Part shown: positions 131 to 59,783 of the stretch, in pieces | Layout of the letters: each line of letters begins with the position of its first letter | How positions within the stretch are numbered: the stretch's first letter is position 1 | Sequence record: MN101221.1 | Strand: one strand, 5' to 3' | Origin: Klebsiella phage KMI7 | DNA length: 64,000 nt | The notes under the pieces: generated by a model | What the model saw: only the letters and a program-made list of their open reading frames with translations | What the model was told of the DNA's origin: nothing | Database searches by the model: none | Translations under genes and position numbers: made by a program

Positions 131-140
131 TCAAAAAGCC

Positions 141-190
141 CTTGACTTCGGTTGAGGGCTTTTGTTATATTGGGCCTATCGAAAAAGGAG
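141..190 (+). promoter_or_regulatory. Hairpin/early-promoter cassette copy 1: UUCG-loop stem 145-170 with TTGACT -35 in the stem, spacer 17, TATATT -10, leader ATCGAAAAAGGAG
   Basis: aaagcccTTGACTtcggttgagggcttttgtTATATT seen directly; six further copies elsewhere in window. Confidence 0.7.
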
Positions 191-17981: not shown

Positions 17982-18060
17982 GGTATTTCTCCTTAAAGGG
18001 TATCTCGTTTCGATATGGCTAATATAGCAAAAGCCCTTGACTTCGGTCAAGGGCTTTTTT
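17982..18060 (-). promoter_or_regulatory. Hairpin/early-promoter cassette copy 2 (terminator stem 18031-18056; -35 CTTGAC, -10 CTATAT, leader ATCGAAACGAG)
   Basis: aaagcccTTGACttcggtcaagggcttttgCTATATtagccatATCGAAACGAGatacccTTTAAGGAGaaatacc ATG on minus strand. Confidence 0.7.
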
Positions 18061-30863: not shown

Positions 30864-31046
30864 TCACCCCTTAATTGTGTCAAGTACAGTAAACCAGTCA
30901 TGAAGCCATATCGTTGTTCTTACAGCGATATACGTTAACAAACTAATCAATGATACCGCTCCGCAAATAGCCAGCGTAATCAACAGCCGGATTTCAAATT
31001 TAGTAAAATTCATATCAATCTCCTTTCTGAGAACCCAATATAACAA
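30864..31046 (-). CDS. hypothetical small membrane protein (60 aa)
   Basis: ORF downstream of cassette copy 3 with AAAGGAGA RBS. Confidence 0.45.
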   Translation of the reverse strand: MLYWVLRKEIDMNFTKFEIRLLITLAICGAVSLISLLTYIAVRTTIWLHDWFTVLDTIKG

Positions 31047-31090
31047 AAGCCCTCAACCGAAGTCAAGGGCTTTGTTTTAAATTTTTACTA
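31034..31090 (-). promoter_or_regulatory. Hairpin/early-promoter cassette copy 3 (40-nt identical to copy 1 in reverse orientation)
   Basis: revcomp of 31034-31073 = aaagcccttgacttcggttgagggcttttgttatattggg, identical to 145-184. Confidence 0.7.
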
Positions 31091-36007: not shown

Positions 36008-36268
36008 TTACCTCAGTTGACTATCTTTCGATCCTCGTCGATTATACCCGGCGCTGATCATTTCGTCATGTTCTTTTTGGCATTCAATACAATAACGGCA
36101 ACCCTTCACGATAGCCCTACGCTTTTCGGGTATCGGATCCCCACAATCAAAACAATGCGTTAATGATTCTCCGTTTCTGATTTGAGAACGTGCAAAATCT
36201 ATCGCATTGTCTATTGTTGTCTGGATGGTATCTTGAACACCGTCAGCAGGGCCAAATCCAACCGCCAT
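36008..36268 (-). CDS. DksA/TraR-type C4 zinc-finger protein (86 aa)
   Basis: CFDCGDPIPEKRRAIVKGCRYCIECQ C4 zinc finger. Confidence 0.6.
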   Translation of the reverse strand: MAVGFGPADGVQDTIQTTIDNAIDFARSQIRNGESLTHCFDCGDPIPEKRRAIVKGCRYCIECQKEHDEMISAGYNRRGSKDSQLR

Positions 36269-36323
36269 TGTAAATCCTCCTAATCAAATGATTTGAATAT
36301 CATAGACTAAGAGGATTTTTCTG

Positions 36324-36821
36324 TCAACTGGTTAATTTCTTTTTCTTTTTACCTGCACGGGTAACACCTAATACTTTCGGCCCGATGTTGGTTACTGCTC
36401 CAGTAGTCACACCAGAAGCAATCTTTTCCGGATCGCCGCCAGAATCGCCAGCGACCATATCCTCTAACATACGCCCCTTATCATAATATTCTTTGAGGCG
36501 TGGAACGTTCAGCATGATTTCTTCATGCTCTTGTTCCGTCAGATTGTAGCGATTGCGTAAGGTATCATATGAACTGGTTAAGTTCATAAATCCAGTCATA
36601 TACGGAACAGAATTCATTCGACGCTTGATATGGCGTACTGAACGATGAAAAGGAGAATACGCTTCTAACTCTTCTTTTGTTTTGGGGTTGCGAATTACTT
36701 CGCCTTGTCCATCAAGGATCCCCAGCTTGTAAGCAGTCCATTCAGTCCAGGGCTTTTTGAGTAGCCGGATCATCCGGACGCTATATGTTAAATCCATATT
36801 TTTAACTAATTGATCACTCAT
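36324..36821 (-). CDS. hypothetical protein (165 aa)
   Basis: ORF. Confidence 0.5.
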   Translation of the reverse strand: MSDQLVKNMDLTYSVRMIRLLKKPWTEWTAYKLGILDGQGEVIRNPKTKEELEAYSPFHRSVRHIKRRMNSVPYMTGFMNLTSSYDTLRNRYNLTEQEHEEIMLNVPRLKEYYDKGRMLEDMVAGDSGGDPEKIASGVTTGAVTNIGPKVLGVTRAGKKKKKLTS

Positions 36822-36826
36822 GATTA

Positions 36827-37603
36827 TTACTCTATTGTGAAAGTGAATAAATCAGATTTGGTTTCAGGTTCAAACTCCATACAAACAACCTCGCATAGTG
36901 GTTTAACCCCTTTCCAATCCTCCAGGTAATACCCAGTATCTATACCGCATCCAGGATTCATAACAAGGCCAGTTTCATCAAGAAACTTTTTGCATTTACT
37001 TGATGTGGTGCTGTCATCTTGTCGGAAACAATGTGTTTTCGAATACCGGAAATTTGCAGACATTTGAGGGATTATGAAAGTTCCCTGACGCGCGATCTGT
37101 GATGCACGTTCGATTACTTTATACTCAAATTCTGCCCCTGTATACTTACCCTTAAAATCAGAGGTTTTGATTTTACCAAAAGGCGGATTACTGATCGCCA
37201 TATCAAACACCTGATTAAATTCAGTTGTTAAGGCGTCTCCATGCACCCAGGAGGCTTCTGGTACGATACGCTTACCTAACTCATAGTATGTGTGATTTAA
37301 CTCAACACAGACGATTTCACGCGGCGTATTGTACATCATGTAATGAACCATAGCGAAAGATAATCCACCGATACCAGCACACAGGTCAATAACGCTTCCA
37401 CCTGTGCAAGCATCGATTGTGAAATCGCGAGCAAGTCCAATAGGGGTAAAGAACGCCCCTAATTCAGAGTTGTTTGTAAACGCGCCTTCATGAAAGTTTT
37501 CGATAATGAACAACTTCTCTTCGTAAGTTAGCGCTTTGTCAGAGTGAACCAGATCCATTATCTGATTGTGTTTCTTGGTTTCCGCTTTCGTTAACTTTGC
37601 CAT
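36827..37603 (-). CDS. gamma-class N6-adenine DNA methyltransferase (orphan)
   Basis: Motif X FFTPIGLA, motif I VIDLCAGIGG, motif IV ISNPPFG in gamma order; start at MAKL (37603) inferred because track N-terminal extension is out-of-frame overlap with 37539..37925. Confidence 0.75.
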   Translation of the reverse strand: MAKLTKAETKKHNQIMDLVHSDKALTYEEKLFIIENFHEGAFTNNSELGAFFTPIGLARDFTIDACTGGSVIDLCAGIGGLSFAMVHYMMYNTPREIVCVELNHTYYELGKRIVPEASWVHGDALTTEFNQVFDMAISNPPFGKIKTSDFKGKYTGAEFEYKVIERASQIARQGTFIIPQMSANFRYSKTHCFRQDDSTTSSKCKKFLDETGLVMNPGCGIDTGYYLEDWKGVKPLCEVVCMEFEPETKSDLFTFTIE

Positions 37604-45490: not shown

Positions 45491-45558
45491 AATATATCCC
45501 TCTCAATGGTGTACACCCAATATAACAAAGCCCCTGCACGAATGCAAGGGCTTTTTGA
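45491..45558 (-). promoter_or_regulatory. Hairpin/early-promoter cassette copy 5 (UUCG-loop stem with TTGCAT -35, TATATT -10)
   Basis: aaagcccTTGCATtcgtgcaggggctttgtTATATTgggtgtacaccattGAGAGGgatatatt ATG on minus strand. Confidence 0.65.
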
Positions 45559-50456: not shown

Positions 50457-50720
50457 TTACGCCTTATCGATCATATCATACAGTTCGATCAGTTCGTTGT
50501 TTTCTTCTTCGAAAGCGGTACGGGCCTGTTCGTGATACAGTTTGAACAGTTTCCCGAAGGTTTTTCCGTCGATACCGAAATCAGTTTTTGCTTTGGATTT
50601 GATATCCTTGAAAGTACCGTTGAAGATCTCAACTTGAGTTTTCACGTTGGATGCTTCTTTGATCAGTTCTTTTACCTGTTTTGCTACATCAGGGTTTGTT
50701 TGTAAAAATTCTACACTCAT
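50457..50720 (-). CDS. dsbA: dsDNA-binding protein DsbA
   Basis: Position between rnh and 33 and similarity to T4 DsbA (KAKTDFGIDGKTFGKLFKLYHEQ.. / ELIELYDMIDKA). Confidence 0.75.
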   Translation of the reverse strand: MSVEFLQTNPDVAKQVKELIKEASNVKTQVEIFNGTFKDIKSKAKTDFGIDGKTFGKLFKLYHEQARTAFEEENNELIELYDMIDKA

Positions 50721-50729
50721 TTTGTTACC

Positions 50730-51665
50730 TCAAAAATCACTTAGTTTTTCGAACATACGGGAAAGTTTGTTATCCATGAAGTAACGTTCCATTTTGGCTT
50801 TACTTCCGGATTTTGGAGTATTATACGCTTCAATAATCGAATTTTCAATATCTTTTGGTATAAATTCGAAATCACGTAGTTCCTCGTTTTCTTTGTAACG
50901 TGCGGCCCATTCAGGGGTCATCAACGTTGTCGGGTCGTCTGCCTCTAGCCATGCCTCTAACTCAGAGGATTTTACCGCTGGGGCGCGTTCACCTTCAACT
51001 TTCGTCACAATATAATCATTTCTGATTTTAATGCAAGCGATACTATCTTTTTTATCGCCTTTGATATTTTTGTATCGCAGATCGTTACGTGGTGAACCGT
51101 ACTTAGGCGTTACCCATTTTTTCTGGGGAGGCGACCATTGACGAACACCGTTATATTTTTGTAGTTGTGTAAAGTCGCTATCAGCGGAAACCACTAATAC
51201 TCGTCTACCTTCACCAACAGCCTTTTTCGTAACAACAGCAATTATATCATCAGCTTCCGCGAATTCAACCTTTAATCCGAGATAAGGCATATTCTGACGG
51301 ATTTCTTCGAACACCGGATTCAGGAAGTTGTTCAGACGATCCCAATCCCATTCTGATTCTTCGTGTTCGATCTGACGACGTTTTTTGTAGTACCAGGCTT
51401 TTTGCCTACGCCAGTAATTTCTGTCATCGAAGGCAATCACGATTTCTGGATACTCGCCTTTAAATTTTACAACGTTAAACCTTAAAGTGTCAAGCACCAG
51501 ATGACGAATCATTTCGATCGTGATGGATGCTTGTTCCTTTGGTTTGAAGTTATTCATCAGTGTAGCGATGGAAATGTTAGAGATATCGATGACCATAGTA
51601 TCATCGGGTTCCCCTTCATCTTGCATCAGCTTGTTCAAGTTAAACATGCTTGCAAAGCTGCTCAT
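50730..51665 (-). CDS. rnh: RNase H / 5'-3' flap exonuclease
   Basis: Aligns with T4 RNase H (WDW, ADD.IAV, GDKKD, RVEGER.P, RYKEN..L.DF motifs). Confidence 0.92.
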   Translation of the reverse strand: MSSFASMFNLNKLMQDEGEPDDTMVIDISNISIATLMNNFKPKEQASITIEMIRHLVLDTLRFNVVKFKGEYPEIVIAFDDRNYWRRQKAWYYKKRRQIEHEESEWDWDRLNNFLNPVFEEIRQNMPYLGLKVEFAEADDIIAVVTKKAVGEGRRVLVVSADSDFTQLQKYNGVRQWSPPQKKWVTPKYGSPRNDLRYKNIKGDKKDSIACIKIRNDYIVTKVEGERAPAVKSSELEAWLEADDPTTLMTPEWAARYKENEELRDFEFIPKDIENSIIEAYNTPKSGSKAKMERYFMDNKLSRMFEKLSDF

Positions 51666-51969
51666 ACATACCTCAATTTTTCAAAGAACGGGGTTATTGT
51701 AGTAACTTACGAAATGAAGTCAATACAAAAGATCATAAAATTTTTGATCAATAATACTTGATTTGATCAAATTTATGATCTATAATTTATTAATTAATAA
51801 TTATTTTACTACAATGATCATTGTAGGTCAAGTACTAAAATCAATAAATTTTATATAATTTAGATCTGATCTATAGATCATTAGATCTACTTTAACCTTA
51901 AATAATATAGAATGAAATTTGATTTTGTCTACAGTTATTATATAATATTCTTAACTTCAAAGAGGAAAT
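51666..51969. promoter_or_regulatory. 300-bp AT-rich divergent intergenic region with nine GATC sites and three perfect 12-bp GATC-centred palindromes
   Basis: ATTTGATCAAAT (51762-51773), CAATGATCATTG (51811-51822), GATCTATAGATC (51866-51877) seen directly. Confidence 0.6.
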
Positions 51970-52497
51970 ATGAATACTATGACTAAAGAAACAACCAATA
52001 TCTACGCAGACAATGAAAAATTATACCCTATCCTCTGTGCATGGAAAAAGCAAATCGCCGAAACAGGTGATCGCAAAATGCCTAATGAGTTGGGGGCTGC
52101 TATTATGGATATTGCAAACGGGCTATCACGTCGTTACAACTTCAACCGTTATTCCGAAGATTGGAAAATGGATATGATTGATGACGGAATTTCCGCTGCA
52201 ATCTCAGGACTGCATAACTTCGATGAAACTCGTTATACCAACGTTTACGGTTACATTAACAAAGCATGTTGGCAAGCATTCGTAACACGTATTCTGTACG
52301 AGAAAAAAGAGAACGCGAAGAAATATAAATTCTTCCTTGAGCACGTTTACGACTGCGAAGATTCAGATATGGTTAGTATTGCAGACGAAGGTTTCATTCA
52401 AGATCTACATGACAAACTATCTCAGTACGAGGCTTCCGCCACCAAAACCAAAGACAAGGAAGCGGAAGTATTCCCAACATTGGAAGATTTTCTATGA
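51970..52497 (+). CDS. 55: Late-promoter sigma factor gp55
   Basis: Aligns with T4 gp55 (GLHNFDETRYTNVYGYINKACWQAFV.., DMVSIADEGFIQDLHDK). Confidence 0.92.
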   Translation: MNTMTKETTNIYADNEKLYPILCAWKKQIAETGDRKMPNELGAAIMDIANGLSRRYNFNRYSEDWKMDMIDDGISAAISGLHNFDETRYTNVYGYINKACWQAFVTRILYEKKENAKKYKFFLEHVYDCEDSDMVSIADEGFIQDLHDKLSQYEASATKTKDKEAEVFPTLEDFL

Positions 52498-52709
52498 AAG
52501 CAATAATTGACTTAAACAAAATATTAACTGATATCGATTACGAAATTGACTTGCTACCCTACTTCGTAAAATTAGAGTTGCAAAACGTGGGAATCCCGGT
52601 TATCATCGATCCAACTGACGTAAGAAACCCCGATTTCGAAGTAGAAGAAGGGGTTTTGTCTTATATGATAAACGCCGAAACTATGATCATGGAGATCACT
52701 TATGATTGA
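52494..52709 (+). CDS. hypothetical protein (71 aa)
   Basis: ORF, ATGA coupling. Confidence 0.45.
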   Translation: MKAIIDLNKILTDIDYEIDLLPYFVKLELQNVGIPVIIDPTDVRNPDFEVEEGVLSYMINAETMIMEITYD

Positions 52710-54385: not shown

Positions 54386-56060
54386 AACATTGACTTATCA
54401 AAATATCTTGTCGGTTGGTAACGTACCGATCGTCATTGATTTTGATTCAGCAAAGAAAACCCTCATTACGGGTAAAAACGGCGGTGGTAAATCCACCATG
54501 ATCGAAGCGCTTACATATGCTCTCTTTGGTAAGTCATTTCGCGATCTGAAAGTCGGACAACTGGTGAACAGTATCAACAAGAAAAAATGTCTGGTTGAAC
54601 TGTTGATCGAATACGGTAATGATGAATATAAAATCATCCGTGGACAAAAGCCGAAAGTATTTGAGATCTGGAAGAATGGCGAAAAACTGCCGGAAGATTC
54701 AGCCGCTGGTGATTATCAGTCACAGCTTGAATCAATGTTGAATATTAATCTGGTGGGCTTTAAACAGGTTATCGTTCTGGGTACTGCTGGTTATGTACCT
54801 TTCATGGAACTGAAAACACCAGATCGCCGTAAACTGGTTGAAGATTTGTTGTCTTTGTCTATCATCAGTGAAATGGACAAACTGAACAAATCATACATCC
54901 GTGGTGTTAACCGCGAACTGGATACGCTTTCAATGCAGATTGGACACGTACAACAGCAGATCGCAACACATCAAAAGTTCATTGACGAACAACGGGCAAA
55001 AGCAAATCAGAATACGGCGCGTTACCAGGATATCTACGATTCCCACGTAGAAACAGCAAAACAGATTAAAGCGCAATTAGTTGAACTTCAAACCCAGATC
55101 GCAGAATGTGTGATCAATGGTGAAGACCAAACAGCAAATATTCAAAAACTGCGTGATGGCTATACACGCCTCTCAATGAACGTAGAACAGTTGCAGCGTC
55201 TTGAGGTGATGTATCGCAAGGGTGGTGAATGTCCGGCCTGTAAACAGCCAATTAGCCCCACTCCTGAACGCATGGAAGAGATTGCCGAGAATATTAAAAA
55301 CGGTACTCAGAAACTTACGCTGATTAAGAACAAGCAAGATCAGCTACAGAAAATCATGGATGATTTACTAACACAACAACGTACACTAAATGGGCTGAAA
55401 TCCAAATACGAATCACTACGCGGTACACTTCAAAACGAAGTTGCAGCGGCTAAACGTGTTCGGGCTGTCATGGATAAAGCACAGGAAGACGTGGTGATCG
55501 ACGAATCCCCAGTTGAAAAACTCCGTGAAGATGAAAAGGAACTTGATTCTAAACGTTCTGGATTTGTCAAGGAAAAATATTTCAGAGGTATTGTTACGGA
55601 TCTGCTGAAAGATTCCGGCGTTAAAGCGAGCATCGTTAAACGTTATATTCCTTACTTCAATAAACAGATTGCGTACTATCTGGATCTGTTGGGTGCTGAT
55701 TATCAGTTCACTCTGGATGATGAATTTAACGAATCGATTAAATCGCTGGGTCGTAATGATTTTAGTTACGCATCGTTCAGTCAAGGAGAAAGAGCACGTA
55801 TCAACCTTGCTTTACTTTTCACCTGGCGCGATGTAACCAGTAAAATTTCTGGTGTTGATTTATCCCTTCTGATCCTGGATGAAGTGTACGATGGTGCAAT
55901 TGATCGTGATGGTAGTTTTGCTGTAAAAGCACTATTGGATGGGATAAATGGTAACGTAATTGTTATCAGTCATCAGGATTTGGATCCGGAAGATTTCGAC
56001 CGACATATTGTTATGTCAAAAGTCGGTCGATTCTCTAAAATGGAAGTTAAGAAGTCTTAA
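54369..56060 (+). CDS. 46: Recombination endonuclease subunit gp46 (Rad50/SbcC-like ATPase)
   Basis: GKNGGGKSTMIEA Walker A, coiled-coil middle with CPxC zinc hook, C-terminal signature and D-loop; colinear with T4 gp46. Confidence 0.92.
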   Translation: MKLKFKTLTYQNILSVGNVPIVIDFDSAKKTLITGKNGGGKSTMIEALTYALFGKSFRDLKVGQLVNSINKKKCLVELLIEYGNDEYKIIRGQKPKVFEIWKNGEKLPEDSAAGDYQSQLESMLNINLVGFKQVIVLGTAGYVPFMELKTPDRRKLVEDLLSLSIISEMDKLNKSYIRGVNRELDTLSMQIGHVQQQIATHQKFIDEQRAKANQNTARYQDIYDSHVETAKQIKAQLVELQTQIAECVINGEDQTANIQKLRDGYTRLSMNVEQLQRLEVMYRKGGECPACKQPISPTPERMEEIAENIKNGTQKLTLIKNKQDQLQKIMDDLLTQQRTLNGLKSKYESLRGTLQNEVAAAKRVRAVMDKAQEDVVIDESPVEKLREDEKELDSKRSGFVKEKYFRGIVTDLLKDSGVKASIVKRYIPYFNKQIAYYLDLLGADYQFTLDDEFNESIKSLGRNDFSYASFSQGERARINLALLFTWRDVTSKISGVDLSLLILDEVYDGAIDRDGSFAVKALLDGINGNVIVISHQDLDPEDFDRHIVMSKVGRFSKMEVKKS

Positions 56061-56772
56061 ACTTGCAGTTATCAAAATGCCAGCGATTCATATTGCTGGC
56101 ATCACCAGATTTATTGCAATATGGACAAATCAACTGCTTCCTTTTTGCTGGCGTCTTTCTATTTGGGTTATTTCTGCAATACGGTATATGTGAACGCAGA
56201 TAATGTAATGACGATTCTGTTCCGCAATATGGACAATTGCCCCGTTCTTTAGGTACGTTTCCGTTCTTATGGGAACACGGGATACCCTCGAACTTATGTT
56301 TCAACCCTTCATTACCTGGTTTCAGTTTGCAGTTGTCGAAGTGCCAACGAGTCATATTTCCAATTATACCTGATTTTCCGCAATGAGGACACACAACCCT
56401 TTCTTGTTGCTTTTTGGCTTTACTCATTCGCTGTCTGGTTTCTTCGGTGAACTCTCTATTCCTATGTGCTTCTGACGCTTTTTTCTTTAACCATTCATAG
56501 CGGCGGTTAGCTGTTCTTTCCTTTGATCTATTGGAACCAACTGTTAACATATGCGCTGCAAAAACAAGTTTGTTATTTCCTGGGTACATCTTGACTAATA
56601 ACAGATGCGCAATATAATGTTGACGCGCTGTAAGATTAACCAAATTATCATCAGAATCTGTTCCACCTATGCACTTAGGTATGATATGGTGTGATTCTGT
56701 ATATCCATCATACTGCGTTTGTTTAGCATGTTCTATGATAGAGTTATAAATTTTGTTATAGTTCATAAACAT
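56047..56772 (-). mobile_element. Free-standing HNH homing endonuclease (Mob-like) with three C-terminal CPxCG...RWHFDNCK zinc-finger repeats
   Basis: HHIIPKCIGGTDSDDNLVNLTARQHYIAH HNH motif; 3' end overlaps gene 46 stop convergently by 14 nt. Confidence 0.8.
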
Positions 56773-56822
56773 ATCTCTTGTTTGATGGGCCGTTAGATAC
56801 CCCTATTTAAGAGGATGAAATT

Positions 56823-57017
56823 ATGTTATTAGAAAAATCTTTTGAATTAGAAACCGCTCTGGAAATAGAGCGGTTTTATCTCCACAACAATTTTCTTGAA
56901 GAAAAACATATAGTTACTATGAAAGATGTTGAGGAAGCATTCAAAAATAATCCTATAGAGTTGACGCGAATCAAGAACAACAAAAGTTCTGTTTGGTTCC
57001 TCGAAAAAATCTATTGA
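56823..57017 (+). CDS. hypothetical protein (64 aa)
   Basis: ORF with AAGAGGA RBS; terminator hairpin follows. Confidence 0.5.
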   Translation: MLLEKSFELETALEIERFYLHNNFLEEKHIVTMKDVEEAFKNNPIELTRIKNNKSSVWFLEKIY

Positions 57018-57042
57018 CCGAAATCCATAAATACAGTAAAGT

Positions 57043-57075
57043 AGCCCATGTAACGAAACGTGGGCTTTGTTTTTA
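57043..57075 (+). terminator. rho-independent terminator (AGCCCAUG...CGUGGGCU + U-rich)
   Basis: Hairpin followed by TTGTTTTTATTT. Confidence 0.6.
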
Positions 57076-57090
57076 TTTGAGGAACAATAA

Positions 57091-57327
57091 ATGATCACCG
57101 AATCCAAAATGACTTATCAGGAAGCACTGAAAGTTTTGGGCGCAACTGGTAGCGAAACCAGCGCCGAAATGTCCAGACTCTTCAAACGTGCATCCTTACG
57201 CAATCACCCCGACCGTGGTGGTAGCAATGAATTAATGCAGAAAATTAACCAGGCTTACGACGTCGTTACAAAAACTGGGCCTAGTGGCGCACGTTCTGAG
57301 ACTGCTGGTGACGTTCGCGCACGTTAG
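57091..57327 (+). CDS. J-domain (DnaJ-like) protein, 78 aa
   Basis: YQEALKVLG...LFKRASLRNHPDRGGSNELMQKINQAYDVV with invariant HPD tripeptide; GAGGA RBS. Confidence 0.8.
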   Translation: MITESKMTYQEALKVLGATGSETSAEMSRLFKRASLRNHPDRGGSNELMQKINQAYDVVTKTGPSGARSETAGDVRAR

Positions 57328-57775
57328 CGGAAACGATATCTTTGTTGAAGTTGGTACACTGAAAGTTCGTTTCTATCGTCACGTGTTCATGCGCAAAGGT
57401 GCTTATGTGTTTAGCGCGGTGTATGATCCTGCTGTATCTAAGTATCGTCCGGCTGCACAACTTCGCGGAACCATGTTCGAAGACGAAGACGGCGCTTGCC
57501 TGGATATGATCGTTGATACGTTCAAAGAGTTGCAGAAACTGAAACCGAGTGTTCAAGGCGTTGTGAACGCGATCGATAAGATGAACGCAGAGTTTGCAGC
57601 GGGACATCGTTCAGCATCTTTTGTTAAACGTGTAGCTGCTCAGGAAGCCGCGCCGAAGCCAGAAGAGAAGCCAAAACGCACTGTTAATCGTATCGGTAAA
57701 GAGGCACTGGAAGAACGATATTCCAACATCACGGGGATCTTTTCCCCGTCCTTGACGTTGTTAATGATATCCTGA
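57284..57775 (+). CDS. hypothetical protein in +1 frame overlapping J-domain gene (start uncertain; possibly expressed by frameshift or from internal ATG 57389)
   Basis: Protein-like ORF (…FEDEDGACLDMIVDTFKELQKLKPSVQGVVNAIDKMNAEF…) with no RBS at its GTG/ATG candidates. Confidence 0.45.
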   Translation: MAHVLRLLVTFAHVSGNDIFVEVGTLKVRFYRHVFMRKGAYVFSAVYDPAVSKYRPAAQLRGTMFEDEDGACLDMIVDTFKELQKLKPSVQGVVNAIDKMNAEFAAGHRSASFVKRVAAQEAAPKPEEKPKRTVNRIGKEALEERYSNITGIFSPSLTLLMIS

Positions 57776-57915
57776 TCGATGAGTTCAATCAGGTCTCTTT
57801 TCTCCTTGATCAAGGTAGAAATTTCTTCTTGCAGCGGGGCTATCTGTGCATGAAGTTCTTTGATCCGTTGATCAATTACGGTCACTTCGAACGCTAAGTT
57901 TCTCATTGTACCCAT
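57640..57915 (-). CDS. hypothetical coiled-coil protein (91 aa; 3' 136 nt overlaps convergent ORF 57284..57775)
   Basis: ORF. Confidence 0.4.
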   Translation of the reverse strand: MGTMRNLAFEVTVIDQRIKELHAQIAPLQEEISTLIKEKRDLIELIDQDIINNVKDGEKIPVMLEYRSSSASLPIRLTVRFGFSSGFGAAS

Positions 57916-58109
57916 TCCCCGTTTTTATCAATGTACATGATCCAATCAGCAACCGCCCAATGGGAAGTATTGCCTTTCGGAGTAGCTACGATGTAGGAAC
58001 CAGCTTTAAACAGTACGCGTTTAGTTTCGTTCAGGGTCAGGTCGCTCATAATGTATTCCTCATTTAACCAAAGTGAATCGTGATTCATAAGCATCGTTCG
58101 GGCGCTCAT
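57903..58109 (-). CDS. hypothetical protein (68 aa)
   Basis: ORF. Confidence 0.4.
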   Translation of the reverse strand: MSARTMLMNHDSLWLNEEYIMSDLTLNETKRVLFKAGSYIVATPKGNTSHWAVADWIMYIDKNGEWVQ

Positions 58110-58455
58110 ACACGGTATCCGAACTTGTAATGACAGTGTACACGGTTTCTTTCACAAGATCCATGATTTTCTGTGATTCTCCCCAGACATTGATACTAAA
58201 ATAAATCCCATTTTTAGGAATAGGATTGTATTCCATATCATAATACATATCCATGAGTTCACAAATGAACAGGCGGCGCTGTTCGTTATCATATGTGAAA
58301 TAAATGTTAAAACAATCGAGAGATTTACTCAAAGTAATCTCTTTGATAACGATGTTGTCTTGTTTGCTAAAATGATCGCGGATTGCTTGCACACAACGCA
58401 ACAGGTTAGGGTAATCATATTTTTGTGAAACAATGACTTGATGTGAAACGCTCAT
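58060..58455 (-). CDS. hypothetical protein (131 aa)
   Basis: ORF downstream of cassette copy 4 with GAGAGGA RBS. Confidence 0.5.
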   Translation of the reverse strand: MSVSHQVIVSQKYDYPNLLRCVQAIRDHFSKQDNIVIKEITLSKSLDCFNIYFTYDNEQRRLFICELMDMYYDMEYNPIPKNGIYFSINVWGESQKIMDLVKETVYTVITSSDTVYERPNDAYESRFTLVK

Positions 58456-58522
58456 AATGTATTCCTCTCAATTAGATACACTCATAATAAAAAAGCCCCC
58501 GACCGAAGTCAAGGGCTTTTTG
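58456..58522 (-). promoter_or_regulatory. Hairpin/early-promoter cassette copy 4 (-35 TTGACT in stem, -10 TATTAT)
   Basis: aaagcccTTGACTtcggtcgggggcttttttTATTATgagtgtatctaattGAGAGGAatacatt ATG on minus strand. Confidence 0.7.
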
Positions 58523-59164
58523 TCAAATGATTTGTTTTTCTTCTAACAGCTTCGCGGTTGTATTAACCATACGAGCATAATCACGGGCTTCTTTCTTTGT
58601 ATACTTGAAACCAGCGTTATAGCTCGCAAGCGCCTTTTTCAAGTCGCCTTTGTGGTAATCAAGCCAGTACTCCAGTTCATAGATCGCATACTTCGATCCA
58701 CCTTGAAGAGTTTCGAGCTTTTTGATTACTACGCGTTTAGGATATGACTTATCCATTCGTGCGCTGGCGCTCCTTGCGGTAACTTGCCAGCATCCATAAG
58801 CGTGATGGCCTTTTTTACCTTTACCGACATTCTCACATGCGCGAGACTCAATCCAGGCAATAGCCGCTAAATGATAGCCTAAACGTTTAGCCTTATCTTT
58901 TTCTACAGGTTTTGCAGTCTTCAAATCATAGTTGTGTCCAACTCGATAAGCATACTCCAAAACCTCTTTCTGCTTCGGTGTGATATTATCCAAATCCTTG
59001 ATGTAGGATGGAGAATTTTTGTTTGCCGGAGGCTTTACAGTAGCCTTTTGTAAAGGCAATTGATGAGTAGGCAAATCCGCAATGAAATCCCCTAGCGGAT
59101 CCGTCGCAGCGTTGCCAGAAAAAGAGCACAAGAAAATGCTGGCAGCAATAATAATTTTCTTCAT
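58523..59164 (-). CDS. Secreted lytic transglycosylase (SLT domain) with signal peptide
   Basis: MKKIIIAASIFLCSFSGNAA signal peptide; AIAWIESRACE (catalytic Glu-Ser), GCWQV, SYNAG SLT motifs. Confidence 0.7.
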   Translation of the reverse strand: MKKIIIAASIFLCSFSGNAATDPLGDFIADLPTHQLPLQKATVKPPANKNSPSYIKDLDNITPKQKEVLEYAYRVGHNYDLKTAKPVEKDKAKRLGYHLAAIAWIESRACENVGKGKKGHHAYGCWQVTARSASARMDKSYPKRVVIKKLETLQGGSKYAIYELEYWLDYHKGDLKKALASYNAGFKYTKKEARDYARMVNTTAKLLEEKQII

Positions 59165-59228
59165 TTTAATACCTATGTTGCAAAAAGAGGGGCAATAATA
59201 CACCCCACTTTATATTTATGCAACTATT

Positions 59229-59783
59229 TTAGATAGTTTTCGCGTCACGTAGTTTATCGTTGATAAACTCAGCAATGTTATAATTTGAAATAGCCTTGTT
59301 AGGATCGTATAGTGCAACAATTTCATCTAATGATACCATAACGGCATGTTTAAAATAGACACTCCAGCTAGTAGTAAAGATTTCTCTGTTGTCAAATCCA
59401 CAATCAGGGCTGAACAATGCGCGGTATTTGTACCCACTGTATTTCGTCAGACGATTCGTGCTGTGTGCATCACTGGTGATCAGAAATTTTCCCTGGTGAG
59501 TTTGAATGACGAAAAAGTATCCGAGGCGTTCTTTGTTGTCCAGCATCTTTTCAAACTTGCGATCGGTTTCTTCGCGAAAAATACGAGAAGTCAGCATTTC
59601 CAACACTTTATCGTATTCGGGCCAATCATTCTCGATCACGATCGCATCAAATGGTTTCTTACCATTAATCCCGCGCCCGATTTCGATTTTCGTGCAAATT
59701 TCGTTGAACGTTTTCAAATCTTCTGGCGTCAGTTCTTTAAGATCGCTCAATTTTGCTACATAATAACGTTTTTCTAGTTTCAT
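59229..59783 (-). CDS. hypothetical protein (184 aa)
   Basis: ORF. Confidence 0.5.
   Translation of the reverse strand: MKLEKRYYVAKLSDLKELTPEDLKTFNEICTKIEIGRGINGKKPFDAIVIENDWPEYDKVLEMLTSRIFREETDRKFEKMLDNKERLGYFFVIQTHQGKFLITSDAHSTNRLTKYSGYKYRALFSPDCGFDNREIFTTSWSVYFKHAVMVSLDEIVALYDPNKAISNYNIAEFINDKLRDAKTI

Follow-up and report, generated by a model that had tools for sequence, protein, structure and literature searches.

The spacer between rnh and gene 55 of Klebsiella phage KMI7 (sequence record MN101221.1) raises the question of what a dense cluster of GATC sites is doing in AT-rich DNA between two divergent gene blocks. Three answers had been offered by the original prediction: a replication origin or DNA-unwinding element, a Dam-methylation-sensitive pair of divergent promoters, or an operator array for a dimeric regulator. 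The window analysed here is the whole stretch of 64,000 nucleotides, and its source is a Slopekvirus (KP15/KP27-type T4-like Klebsiella phage). As predicted, a non-coding stretch of about 78% AT was found between the rnh and gene 55 blocks, and it is the longest and most AT-rich such stretch of the window. The locus is composed as follows:

50730-51665, minus strand: rnh (RNase H / flap endonuclease), heading the leftward block rnh-dsbA-33-59-32
51666-51969, no strand: rnh/55 intergenic hub (304 bp, 78.6% AT), the switch point of the coding strand
51970-52497, plus strand: gene 55 (late sigma factor), heading the rightward block 55-...-47-46

The rnh product matched Pfam RNaseH_C (2e-33), and the open reading frame at 51970-52497 (plus strand) is annotated as gp55 in all related records. 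In the KP27 genome, all genes from rIIA to rnh (31 kb) lie on the minus strand and all genes from gene 55 onward (>20 kb) on the plus strand. The cumulative GC skew has a local minimum at the hub, which was rejected as a sign of an origin because it is fully explained by gene orientation. Two small open reading frames of the spacer (34 aa, 51650-51754; 31 aa, 51763-51858) were treated as spurious, since they have TTG starts, are AT-rich and, in one case, overlap the rnh start; the 34-aa frame is annotated in some records. Across 113 Slopekvirus genomes the spacer is 97-99% identical, matching the flanking genes, and conservation within the genus is therefore uninformative on constraint. A search of the spacer against Rfam returned nothing relevant at E ≤ 1, and motif scans of the spacer found no T4 late promoter (TATAAATA) and no exact IHF site.

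Nine GATC tetramers had been predicted in about 160 bp. Nine were counted in 157 bp (starts at 51731, 51746, 51765, 51777, 51816, 51863, 51868, 51876 and 51884), against 0.53 expected from base composition (Poisson P = 5.7e-9). Under a second-order Markov model fitted to this same region, the mean was 2.2 and nine sites were reached in 1 of 10,000 simulations. Of the 14 G and 16 C residues in the 169-bp core, nine of each lie in GATC, and the runner-up cluster of the window has five sites in 138 bp. The observed/expected count proposed with the original prediction was run on the window (418 observed; 236 expected from composition, 426 from a Markov-2 model) and on KP27 (1130 observed; 645 and 1146 expected, respectively): both are near the Markov-2 expectation, with no overall avoidance of GATC. 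The sites and palindromes are arranged as follows:

51731-51780, no strand: left GATC group with four sites (51731, 51746, 51765, 51777), including the palindrome ATTTGATCAAAT
51761-51772: perfect palindrome ATTTGATCAAAT
51787-51800: perfect palindrome TTATTAATTAATAA (14 bp)
51809-51826: central perfect palindrome CTACAATGATCATTGTAG (18 bp), with GATC at its centre
51863-51887, no strand: right GATC group AGATCTGATCTATAGATCATTAGATCT with four sites in 25 bp, containing the palindrome 51867-51880 and two TTAGATCT motifs
51867-51880: perfect palindrome TGATCTATAGATCA (14 bp)

All three palindromes that had been described as 12-bp elements are present, but two of them are longer (18 bp and 14 bp). 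An imperfect 107-bp dyad (51765-51871, 73%) is centred on CTACAATGATCATTGTAG. The fold of the spacer as single-stranded DNA (z = -2.8) is expected from the palindromes; the fold of the P2 RNA leader was not significant (z = -1.2). The GATC contexts are mixed (TGATCA, AGATCT, TGATCT, AGATCA) and the spacing is irregular. In the full KP27 set, the spacings (5, 5, 8, 8, 12, 13, 14, 16, 17, 19, 21, 31 and 39) are without helical phasing; pairs at 12, 21 and 31 bp correspond to what is looked for in a SeqA binding cluster, at least two GATCs within ~31 bp and ideally facing the same side of the helix. Single sites vary among isolates: in the alignment, each of the nine other Slopekviruses reads GACC at site 51731 and carries an additional GATC at the window-equivalent position 51760. 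Between the window and the KP27 hub, one GATC was lost and one gained, with nine sites kept.

The rnh/55 cluster is not unique. KP27 has three such hubs (rnh/55, gp3/orf206 and gp24/uvsY), all promoter-rich, and they coincide with the three least stable 100-bp duplex windows of the 174-kb genome. Each is 15-20-fold enriched in GATC over the composition expectation (P = 1e-8, 2e-8 and 4e-6); in the AT-rich segments of KP27, GATC occurs 26 times and each other permutation of G, A, T and C at most 7 times. The hub GATCs form part of longer motifs that recur, TTAGATCT and TGATCTATAAT. The hubs make up 0.5% of the KP27 genome and hold 7 of its 8 copies of TTAGATCT and 17 of 61 TAGATC (P ~2e-4 for the excess of these longer motifs), and of the 23 hub GATCs, 15 have a TA flank (P = 3e-4). 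Modules are duplicated among the hubs (TTTATGATCTATAAT.TATTAAT, TTTAGATCTGATCT and GATCTTGAATT.ATAAAT), TTTAGATCTGATCT being common to the rnh/55 hub and hub 2 (gp3/orf206). In hub 3 (gp24/uvsY), a hub-class promoter faces away from uvsY into ~100 nt of AT-rich DNA followed by a terminator, with no gene. The paralogous set of three hubs and the longer motifs around GATC had been overlooked in the original prediction. A scan of IMG/VR with the 14-mer GAGCGAAGCGAAGG gave more than 100 unrelated chance matches, and a literature search for Slopekvirus and GATC found no earlier description.

Four sigma-70-type sites were located in the spacer, and the identical set is annotated in KP27:

51696-51723, minus strand: P1, rnh-proximal sigma-70-type promoter (TTGACT, 16 nt, TACAAT; predicted start ~51689)
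51758-51786, plus strand: P2, hub-class predicted promoter toward gene 55 (TTGATT, 17 nt, TATAAT; start ~51793)
51803-51831, minus strand: P3, predicted promoter, consensus match only (TTGACC, 17 nt, TAAAAT; start ~51796)
51898-51910, plus strand: conserved UP-element-like block TTAAATAATATAG upstream of P4
51919-51946, plus strand: P4, gene-55-proximal promoter (TTGATT, 16 nt, TATAAT; predicted start ~51953)

Divergent promoters are thus the best supported of the three earlier readings: there are four sigma-70-type sites, the outer two hold their position in the sister genus, and GATC lies against a -10 and in spacers. The P1 -35 (TTGACT) and -10 keep their place in RB43, leE and Phynn, as do a -35 (TTGAWW) and the -10 TATAAT at the place of P4, and TTAAATAATATAG differs little or not at all among Slopekvirus, RB43-type phages and Phynn, inside a spacer that is otherwise unalignable. 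P1 and P4 bracket a dyad-symmetric core of ~170 bp and ~80% AT, which contains P2, P3 and the nine GATCs. In the window, a GATC lies 7 nt upstream of the P1 -35. P2 has one in its spacer at -16 to -13, abutting the -10, and another beside the -35; the spacer of P3, which faces P2, is filled by the 18-bp palindrome with its central GATC. P2 and P3 thereby show the arrangement looked for in a Dam-sensitive promoter, a GATC inside or next to the -35, the spacer or the -10. P2 belongs to a set of four paralogous promoters (CTTGAnnT..TTTGATCTATAATAATTATTAAT) confined to the three hubs. This AT-rich class (CTTGAnnT...TTTGATC-TATAAT) is unlike the ordinary GC-hairpin early promoters of the phage; the ordinary KP27 class (AAAGCCCTTGCAT..GGGCTTT..TATATT) has essentially no GATC. 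In KP27, the 4-mer most often found immediately 5' of TATAAT is GATC (6 of 121, five of the six in hubs), and 14 of the 15 GATCs in the sequences surrounding its 42 annotated promoters belong to hub promoters. Promoter-like matches in the spacer numbered 8 against 3.9 ± 2.0 in shuffles.

The host of the phage is an enterobacterium, a group that has Dam and SeqA. Promoters such as IS10 transposase pIN and dnaA P2 can vary in strength with the methylation of their template. These promoters and the hub are alike in having GATC inside or against core promoter elements; they differ in that promoters of the IS10 pIN and dnaA P2 type have one or two GATCs, and the hub has nine in 157 bp over four promoters and their upstream regions, a pattern recurring at three loci. 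IS10 and dnaA are listed among Dam-sensitive promoters, and oriC (11 GATC) and the dnaA promoter (8 GATC) among SeqA-sequestered clusters (PMC10073500). The genus itself encodes a D12-class (Dam-family) methyltransferase (PMC5219037). An N6-adenine methyltransferase of the phage had been placed at 36827-37603, and this frame is a predicted DNA methyltransferase (NPPF motif; PHROG 3820 at 4e-129), with a weak match to Pfam N6_Mtase; the Dam-type enzyme is a separate gene outside the window (KP27 150190-151041, Pfam MethyltransfD12 1e-34). In the frameshift-rich CPRSB assembly, GATC accounted for 43 of 559 mismatches against 15.8 expected (2.7-fold, P = 6e-9) and was mostly read as AATC. This would fit methylation-linked base-calling errors; GCCG and TAGA were affected as frequently.

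Our tentative explanation, which we place just short of an even chance, is that the rnh/55 spacer is a divergent promoter hub in which the GATCs would act as marks, readable by Dam and SeqA, on promoter contacts, and that it would probably double as a T4-style origin. Of all candidates for a methylation-sensitive switch region or a start site of replication, the three hubs are the best. The marked contacts would be the -16 to -13 positions (placing 6mA on the -15/-14 pairs that sigma region 3 reads), the -35 flank and the upstream UP region. Infecting DNA would be fully methylated and newly replicated DNA hemimethylated, the latter being the substrate of host SeqA, so that promoters with GATC marks on their contacts would respond to the state of the template. 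This would provide a replication-coupled switch for 55, 47, 46, dsbA, 32 and uvsY, genes driven by MotA in T4, in a lineage that lacks MotA. The turnover of individual GATCs among isolates and their unphased spacings weigh against this explanation, as do the 1-2 GATC of each sister-genus hub, the excess of longer motifs, promoter-like matches only ~2 sd above shuffles in such AT-rich DNA, and a P3 called by consensus match.

The predicted origin or unwinding element was examined through duplex stability and known origin motifs:

51762-51861, no strand: candidate unwinding element, with the lowest duplex stability of any 100 bp in the window, -101.4 kcal/mol (mean over the window -132.4, sd 6.2)

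In KP27, the homologous stretch ranks among the three least stable windows of the 174-kb genome. The unwinding part of the original prediction is supported in physical terms, by the low duplex stability. The analogy with oriC and SeqA holds for GATC density only: no DnaA box (TTATNCACA) was found at ≤1 mismatch on either strand of 51666-51969. A scan of the spacer for the oriC-type 13-mer GATCTnTTnTTTT gave one match with one mismatch and one with two, and the best local alignment to MG1655 oriC (26/33) is marginal (P = 0.04 against GATC-count-preserving shuffles). Both oriC and the hub have an AT-rich region with GATCT-type repeats, which in the hub is a candidate unwinding element, and GATCs that overlap promoters or origin elements. 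Compared with oriC, the hub packs its GATCs more densely (9 in 157 bp; oriC, 11 in 232 bp) and is far richer in AT (79%; oriC, 59%). It is a phage spacer in three copies, oriC being a chromosomal origin.

The hub was also compared with T4, where the minimal origin is a promoter with an AT-rich downstream unwinding element, where oriE, oriF and oriG sit at transcriptional divergence and skew switches, and where oriE reportedly uses an early promoter (PMC3016281). The hub has predicted promoters and an AT-rich candidate unwinding element within ~100 bp, the predicted starts of P2 (~51793) and P3 (~51796) lying inside 51762-51861; since a T4-type origin has this composition, P2 and P3 would be rightly placed to prime replication too. 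Hubs and T4 oriF/oriG are alike in combining a promoter with easily melted AT-rich DNA, in transcriptional divergence and in being several per genome. One hub is found immediately upstream of uvsY, at the position of oriF in T4, and the hub-flanking genes are 'middle' genes of T4, in which P55, P47, P46, PdsbA, P32 and PuvsY are MotA-dependent and the origins are driven by PuvsY and P34i (PMC2988021). T4 oriG is 2.1 kb inside gene 34, outside the rnh spacer, and origin synteny is therefore exact for uvsY only. Unlike T4 oriF and oriG, the hub has no MotA box (TGCTTNA; none within the spacer or 60 bp around it) and does have a GATC cluster. A single GATC lies within ±200 bp of T4 oriF and of T4 oriG, and the count for these two origins and the T4 rnh/34 spacer is 0-1 each; GATC density is therefore not a T4-origin trait. 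No Pfam match to MotA or AsiA was found in the syntenic t-rIIB interval of the window, and MotA and middle promoters are missing from RB43-type phages (PMC1524935).

In genomes of this RB43-type sister genus (Pseudotevenvirus), hubs lie at the same three junctions (rnh/55, gp3/orf and gp24/uvsY) with 1-2 GATC each, and a high GATC density is therefore not required for the general role of the hubs. Their core is a different dyad-symmetric cassette of ~170 bp with an AT-rich centre, present in exactly three copies per genome (RB43, RB16, Miller, leE and others). It has GC-rich 12-bp terminal inverted repeats (GAGCGAAGCGAA/TTCGCTTCGCTC), an invariant core (TTATATATAGAGAAAA) and no GATC inside. 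Two direct copies and one inverted copy of a 7-mer box change together between lineages (RB43 AACTACA/TGTAGTT; leE ATGTAC/GTACAT; Phynn ATGTCCAC/GTGGACAT). The cassette and the Slopekvirus hub share their approximate size, junctions, dyad symmetry and outer promoters, and are unrelated in sequence except for the box, which the CTACAATGATCATTGTAG arms CTACAAT/ATTGTAG resemble. The RB43-type P_rnh and P_uvsY have GATC in their spacers; hub promoters of both genera show GATC in the spacer or -35 flank, although their sequences cannot be aligned. A search of Rfam with the RB43 cassette returned nothing relevant; a search of IMG/VR with gp55 found Slopekvirus and Pseudotevenvirus loci only, with no intermediates for the replacement of the core. 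The literature searched on intergenic repeats or origins of RB43 and RB16 gave no earlier description of the three-copy cassette.

Four other explanations were weighed against these data. A T4 oriF/oriG-type origin is a possible explanation, less probable than the marked promoter hub and compatible with it: RNA started at P2 and/or P3 would persist as an R-loop in the easily melted core and prime leading strands outward, co-directionally with the gene blocks, and SeqA would be able to sequester the fired origin through the GATC cluster, as at oriC. The least stable duplex of the window lies at the strand switch, as would suit such an origin, and the composition and siting of T4 origins (PMC3016281), the three hubs per genome (T4 likewise has several origins) with one upstream of uvsY like oriF, the hub 3 promoter with no gene to express, and the three AT-rich-core cassettes at the same junctions of the sister genus all point the same way. 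The lack of both MotA box and MotA (PMC1524935), the single GATC at T4 oriF and at oriG, the location of oriG in gene 34 and a skew minimum explained by gene orientation count against it. Far less probable, and very improbable in itself, is a packaging initiation site of the P1 pac type, with groups of Dam-methylatable hexamers flanking a cleavage region. P1 pac (161 bp) has seven TGATCA/G hexamers as 4+3, and the hub has GATCs as 4+1+4 in 157 bp, so that both show two groups of (T/A)GATC(A/T) hexamers around an AT-rich centre in ~160 bp (PMC10028697). Unlike P1 pac, the hub is intergenic with promoters and exists in three copies rather than at one unique site; there is also no exact IHF site, the terminase is of the T4 gp16/gp17 type, and virion DNA of two Slopekviruses is reportedly circularly permuted and terminally redundant, without a coverage peak or preferred end (PMC9960720).

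Two explanations remain. An operator or iteron array would be bound by a sequence-specific, probably dimeric protein of phage or host on GATC-centred palindromes (TTAGATCTAA, TGATCTA), with GATC merely the core of a site through which the divergent promoters would be controlled or the three hubs marked. Judged from the motifs, we regard this as unlikely: the contexts are heterogeneous, the spacing is irregular, and sites are gained and lost among near-identical isolates. It is favoured by the hub concentration of TTAGATCT (7/8) and TAGATC (17/61), an excess for which a sequence-specific protein would account no less well than Dam/SeqA, by the TA flanks and the perfect palindromes of 12-18 bp, and by the covarying boxes of the sister cassette, a behaviour of operator or iteron sites with a co-evolving protein. 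More doubtful still is that the GATCs have no function of their own and came as passengers inside promoter modules, or inside a small mobile cassette, copied into three AT-rich junctions; as a variant, they would be by-products of -35-like TTGATC and AT-rich palindromes. The duplicated modules common to the hubs, the 12-bp terminal inverted repeats and MITE-like size of the sister cassette and the polymorphism of single sites are consistent with passengers. They would not lead one to expect GATC in at least three unrelated module types and singly, independent enrichment of all three hubs, nine sites kept in the window and KP27 despite one loss and one gain, or the recurrence of GATC in the spacer and -35 flank of sister-genus hub promoters that are unalignable.

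The marked promoter hub can be extended to a wider proposal, which we consider unlikely in full: the three hubs would be replication origins and, at the same time, a functional replacement for MotA-dependent middle transcription, with shut-off by SeqA. The hub promoters would fire on the fully methylated incoming genome, expressing 55, 46/47, 32/59/33, rnh and uvsY, and the same firing would prime replication through R-loops in the meltable core. After the first round of replication, the hemimethylated GATC clusters would be coated by host SeqA, turning promoters and origins off, and this shut-off would force the phage over to late transcription and to replication that depends on recombination. 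In the sister genus, the different three-copy cassette and a binding protein of its own would have the same effect.

These results bear on the timing of 'middle' genes and on replication start sites in MotA-less T4-like phages. T4 origins cannot be found by homology because they share no sequence motif; the outcome here is three small, sharply delimited candidate elements per genome of Slopekvirus, a genus widely isolated as a candidate for Klebsiella therapy, with positional counterparts in more than 60 Pseudotevenvirus genomes. If the reading of the three hubs as origins and switches is true, RB43/KP15-type phages would have a conserved three-site cis-element system not described in the literature searched. 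If Dam and SeqA do not read the GATCs, the region is still useful as an annotated promoter hub; if they do, a virulent phage would be exploiting the origin-sequestration machinery of its host as a developmental timer.

Window positions 50700-52600 were 98.9% identical to Slopekvirus Klebsiella phages (KP15, KP27, Matisse, Miro and others), T4-like phages (Straboviridae) with an 'RB43-type' gene order (PMC2993671). In KP27, all genes from rIIA to rnh (31 kb) lie on one strand and all genes from gene 55 onward (>20 kb) on the opposite strand, so that the spacer between rnh and gene 55 is the main transcriptional divergence point for replication and recombination genes. As originally noted, this spacer is long and AT-rich (304 bp, 78.6% AT); it is also the least stable duplex of the window (-101 kcal/mol per 100 bp vs -132 +/- 6). 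The GATC cluster was likewise confirmed: nine sites fall within 157 bp (51731-51887), against a composition expectation of 0.53 (Poisson P = 5.7e-9), and nine were attained in 1 of 10,000 simulations with a second-order Markov model trained on the same region. Within the GATC-bearing core of the spacer, 9/14 G and 9/16 C residues belong to a GATC. The proposed observed/expected count was run (window, 418 vs Markov-2 426; KP27, 1130 vs 1146), and there is no genome-wide GATC avoidance, the counts being near Markov-2 expectations. The reported palindromes exist, but two had been stated too short and measure 18 bp (CTACAATGATCATTGTAG) and 14 bp (TGATCTATAGATCA). The 18-bp palindrome is the centre of an imperfect 107-bp dyad (51765-51871, 73%).

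Four sigma-70-type sites (P1-P4) were detected in the spacer; the identical set is already annotated in the KP27 record.

Spacer promoters and neighbouring genes (window coordinates)
50730-51665, minus strand: rnh, left neighbour of the spacer
51723..51696, minus strand: P1, directly upstream of rnh
51758-51786, plus strand: P2, between P1 and P4
51831..51803, minus strand: P3, between P1 and P4
51919-51946, plus strand: P4, directly upstream of gene 55
51970-52497, plus strand: gene 55, right neighbour of the spacer

The predicted starts of P2 and P3 are face to face, ~3 bp apart, so RNA polymerase could not occupy both simultaneously. One group of four GATC sites lies upstream of P2 and another upstream of P3. 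At P2, a GATC adjoins the -35 and another directly abuts the -10 (TGATC-TATAAT); at P3, the 18-bp palindrome fills the promoter spacer, with GATC at its centre. Promoter-like matches are only ~2 sd above shuffles in DNA of such AT content, and P2 and P3 are promoters predicted from consensus and paralogy. Across the three hubs described below, four promoters are clearly paralogous to one another (CTTGAnnT..AAA..TTTGATCTATAATAATTATTAAT). Several recent records (phi1_146054, Squirrel, Roth23) annotate a 'hypothetical protein' at 51650-51754 (plus strand), a 34-codon ORF that begins with TTG and overlaps the rnh start; it extends across P1 plus two GATCs and has the look of an over-call.

In the ordinary annotated promoters of the phage, a GC-rich hairpin surrounds the -35 (AAAGCCCTTGCATTCGTGCAGGGCTTTGTTATATT) and GATC is absent. 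The -35 of the ordinary early promoters sits inside a GC-rich stem-loop (AAAGCCC-TTGAC/TTGCA...GGGCTTT-N-TATATT), a layout reminiscent of the 'promoter-early stem-loop' cassettes of RB49-type phages. Many of these promoters are doubly annotated in KP27, as 'middle promoter' and as terminator.

Ordinary stem-loop promoters, motif copies (window coordinates)
133-171, plus strand
18021-18060, minus strand
31037-31073, minus strand
45519-45556, minus strand
58484-58521, minus strand

The whole KP27 genome was assembled and scanned for AT-rich segments, duplex stability and GATC. Its three longest AT-rich segments were rnh/55, gp3/KP27_206 (100.4-100.8 kb) and gp24/uvsY (134.9-135.3 kb), hereafter hubs, and these also contained the three 100-bp windows with the lowest duplex stability in the 174 kb (-91, -96 and -101 kcal/mol; next, -111). 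They hold 9, 8 and 6 GATC where 0.4-0.6 are expected (P = 1e-8 to 4e-6); the other five AT-rich segments, all shorter, hold 0-2.

KP27 hubs outside the window (75-82% AT)
KP27 100437-100805 (L011:437-805): gp3/KP27_206 hub, AT-, promoter- and GATC-rich
KP27 134943-135255 (L011:34943-35255): gp24/uvsY hub, AT-, promoter- and GATC-rich

GATC occurs 26 times in KP27 AT-rich DNA, every other permutation of those four letters at most 7 times. Hub GATCs are also part of longer motifs: although the hubs are 0.5% of the genome, they contain 7/8 genomic TTAGATCT, 5/5 TGATCTATAAT and 17/61 TAGATC. GATC immediately precedes TATAAT more often than any other 4-mer does (5/6 occurrences in hubs). At the uvsY hub, a hub-class promoter faces away from uvsY, into ~100 nt of AT-rich DNA that runs up to a bidirectional terminator and holds no gene for it to transcribe.

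Within the genus, conservation is uninformative because the spacer is 97-99% identical, the same as the flanking genes. Individual GATCs nevertheless turn over: 51731 is GATC in the window and GACC in the other nine aligned genomes, the equivalent of 51760 is GATC in all nine and not in the window, and 51863 is AATC in PMBT1 and one metagenomic genome. The comparison covered the sister genus Pseudotevenvirus (RB43, Miller, leE, EC-F1 and Fraggle) and, in addition, Pantoea phage Phynn. In all of these the spacer length (302-323 bp, as in Slopekvirus) and the P1 and P4 positions are kept, as is the block TTAAATAATATAG (window 51898-51910) upstream of P4; the remaining spacer is unalignable. Only 1-2 GATC are present, within or beside the rnh promoter. 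In place of the core stands a dyad-symmetric cassette of ~170 bp that contains GAGCGAAGCGAA, a short hairpin, a 7-mer box, invariant TTATATATAGAGAAAA, an inverted copy of the box and TTCGCTTCGCTC, and has 12-bp terminal inverted repeats. The box covaries across lineages (AACTACA/TGTAGTT, ATGTAC/GTACAT, ATGTCCAC/GTGGACAT) and resembles the arms of the window's 18-bp palindrome (CTACAAT/ATTGTAG). BLAST found the cassette in 65 records, at exactly three places in every complete Pseudotevenvirus genome among the matches listed. No gene or function is annotated beneath it, and an Rfam search of the cassette gave no match, as did that of the spacer for structured RNA families. In RB43 it occupies the same three junctions as the hubs, in the same orientation.

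RB43 cassette copies
L149:3655-3835
L149:38375-38560
L003:1300-1480

Shared junctions in both genera imply that the three-hub architecture predates either genus; Slopekvirus has its own version, the one with a GATC-rich core.

Elsewhere, at 57321-57704 and 57699-58061, none of 176 related phage records is colinear with the window. A match to KP27 36.5-36.9 kb (the ORF downstream of gene 46) abuts one to KP27 81.6 kb, skipping ~44.7 kb that includes frd, td, nrdAB, ligase and baseplate genes, among others; ~490 bp (KP27 36045-36534) are also absent. None of the 176 records covered at least 80% of 55500-59500. The discontinuity could be a rearranged genome, a deleted genome or an assembly join.

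The spacer is thus a divergent hub with conserved, predicted outer promoters, a meltable dyad-symmetric core and highly non-random GATC on promoter elements. By orthology, the three hub loci flank genes driven in T4 by MotA-dependent middle promoters (P55, P47, P46, PdsbA, P32 and PuvsY; PMC2988021). Hub GATCs would be Dam marks, and TGATC-TATAAT would place two methylated adenines at -15/-14, base pairs that sigma region 3 contacts in extended -10 promoters (PMC2988021). Hub promoters may then tell fully methylated infecting DNA from hemimethylated replicated DNA, the latter being a substrate of host SeqA (PMC10073500). We give such a methylation-read hub slightly less than an even chance, its main weaknesses being GATC turnover and the nearly GATC-free sister-genus hubs. 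The ORF at 36827-37603 (minus strand), invoked originally as the phage's N6-adenine methyltransferase, is a predicted DNA methyltransferase (NPPF motif, PHROG 3820, weak Pfam N6_Mtase/MTS; 'hypothetical' in KP27, KP27_035), but it is distinct from the genus's D12 Dam-type and cytosine enzymes; the Dam-family (D12) gene lies outside the window (PMC5219037). In the assembly of Klebsiella phage CPRSB (OM971649.1), essential genes are in many fragments (DNA polymerase in 7). GATC is 2.7-fold enriched among its mismatches to KP27 (39/275 sites, mostly GATC->AATC; 5/9 hub GATCs affected), which fits base-calling errors at methylated sites, though not conclusively.

The suggested oriC likeness held for GATC density, the sole defining trait shared with oriC and the dnaA promoter; a scan of the spacer for DnaA boxes found none, and the oriC 13-mer region was marginally similar (P = 0.04). 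T4 origins combine a promoter with an AT-rich unwinding element, and three lie at transcriptional divergence (PMC3016281); the hubs match them physically. Their promoters are PuvsY and P34i (PMC2988021), and one hub lies directly upstream of uvsY. Since the predicted P2/P3 starts fall within the DNA that melts most readily, this element is also the leading candidate for a T4-style R-loop origin. However, no MotA box was found in the spacer, RB43-type phages lack MotA (PMC1524935), T4 oriF/oriG have no GATC cluster, and oriG is situated within gene 34, at 2.1 kb. We regard origin function as less likely than not; it is compatible with the promoter-hub reading. That a dedicated protein binds the GATC palindromes appears unlikely, and that GATC is a passenger less likely still. 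The layout also resembles P1 pac (161 bp, TGATCA/G hexamers arranged 4+3; PMC10028697), but with permuted Slopekvirus DNA lacking a preferred end (PMC9960720), a T4-type terminase and three hubs per genome, a pac site is very improbable.

In the literature searched, of incomplete coverage, we found no prior description of the GATC enrichment, of the three hubs as a set, of a promoter class specific to them, or of their positional correspondence to the three-copy RB43-type cassette. Methylation-read promoters at the hubs would provide a replication-coupled switch in a MotA-less lineage.
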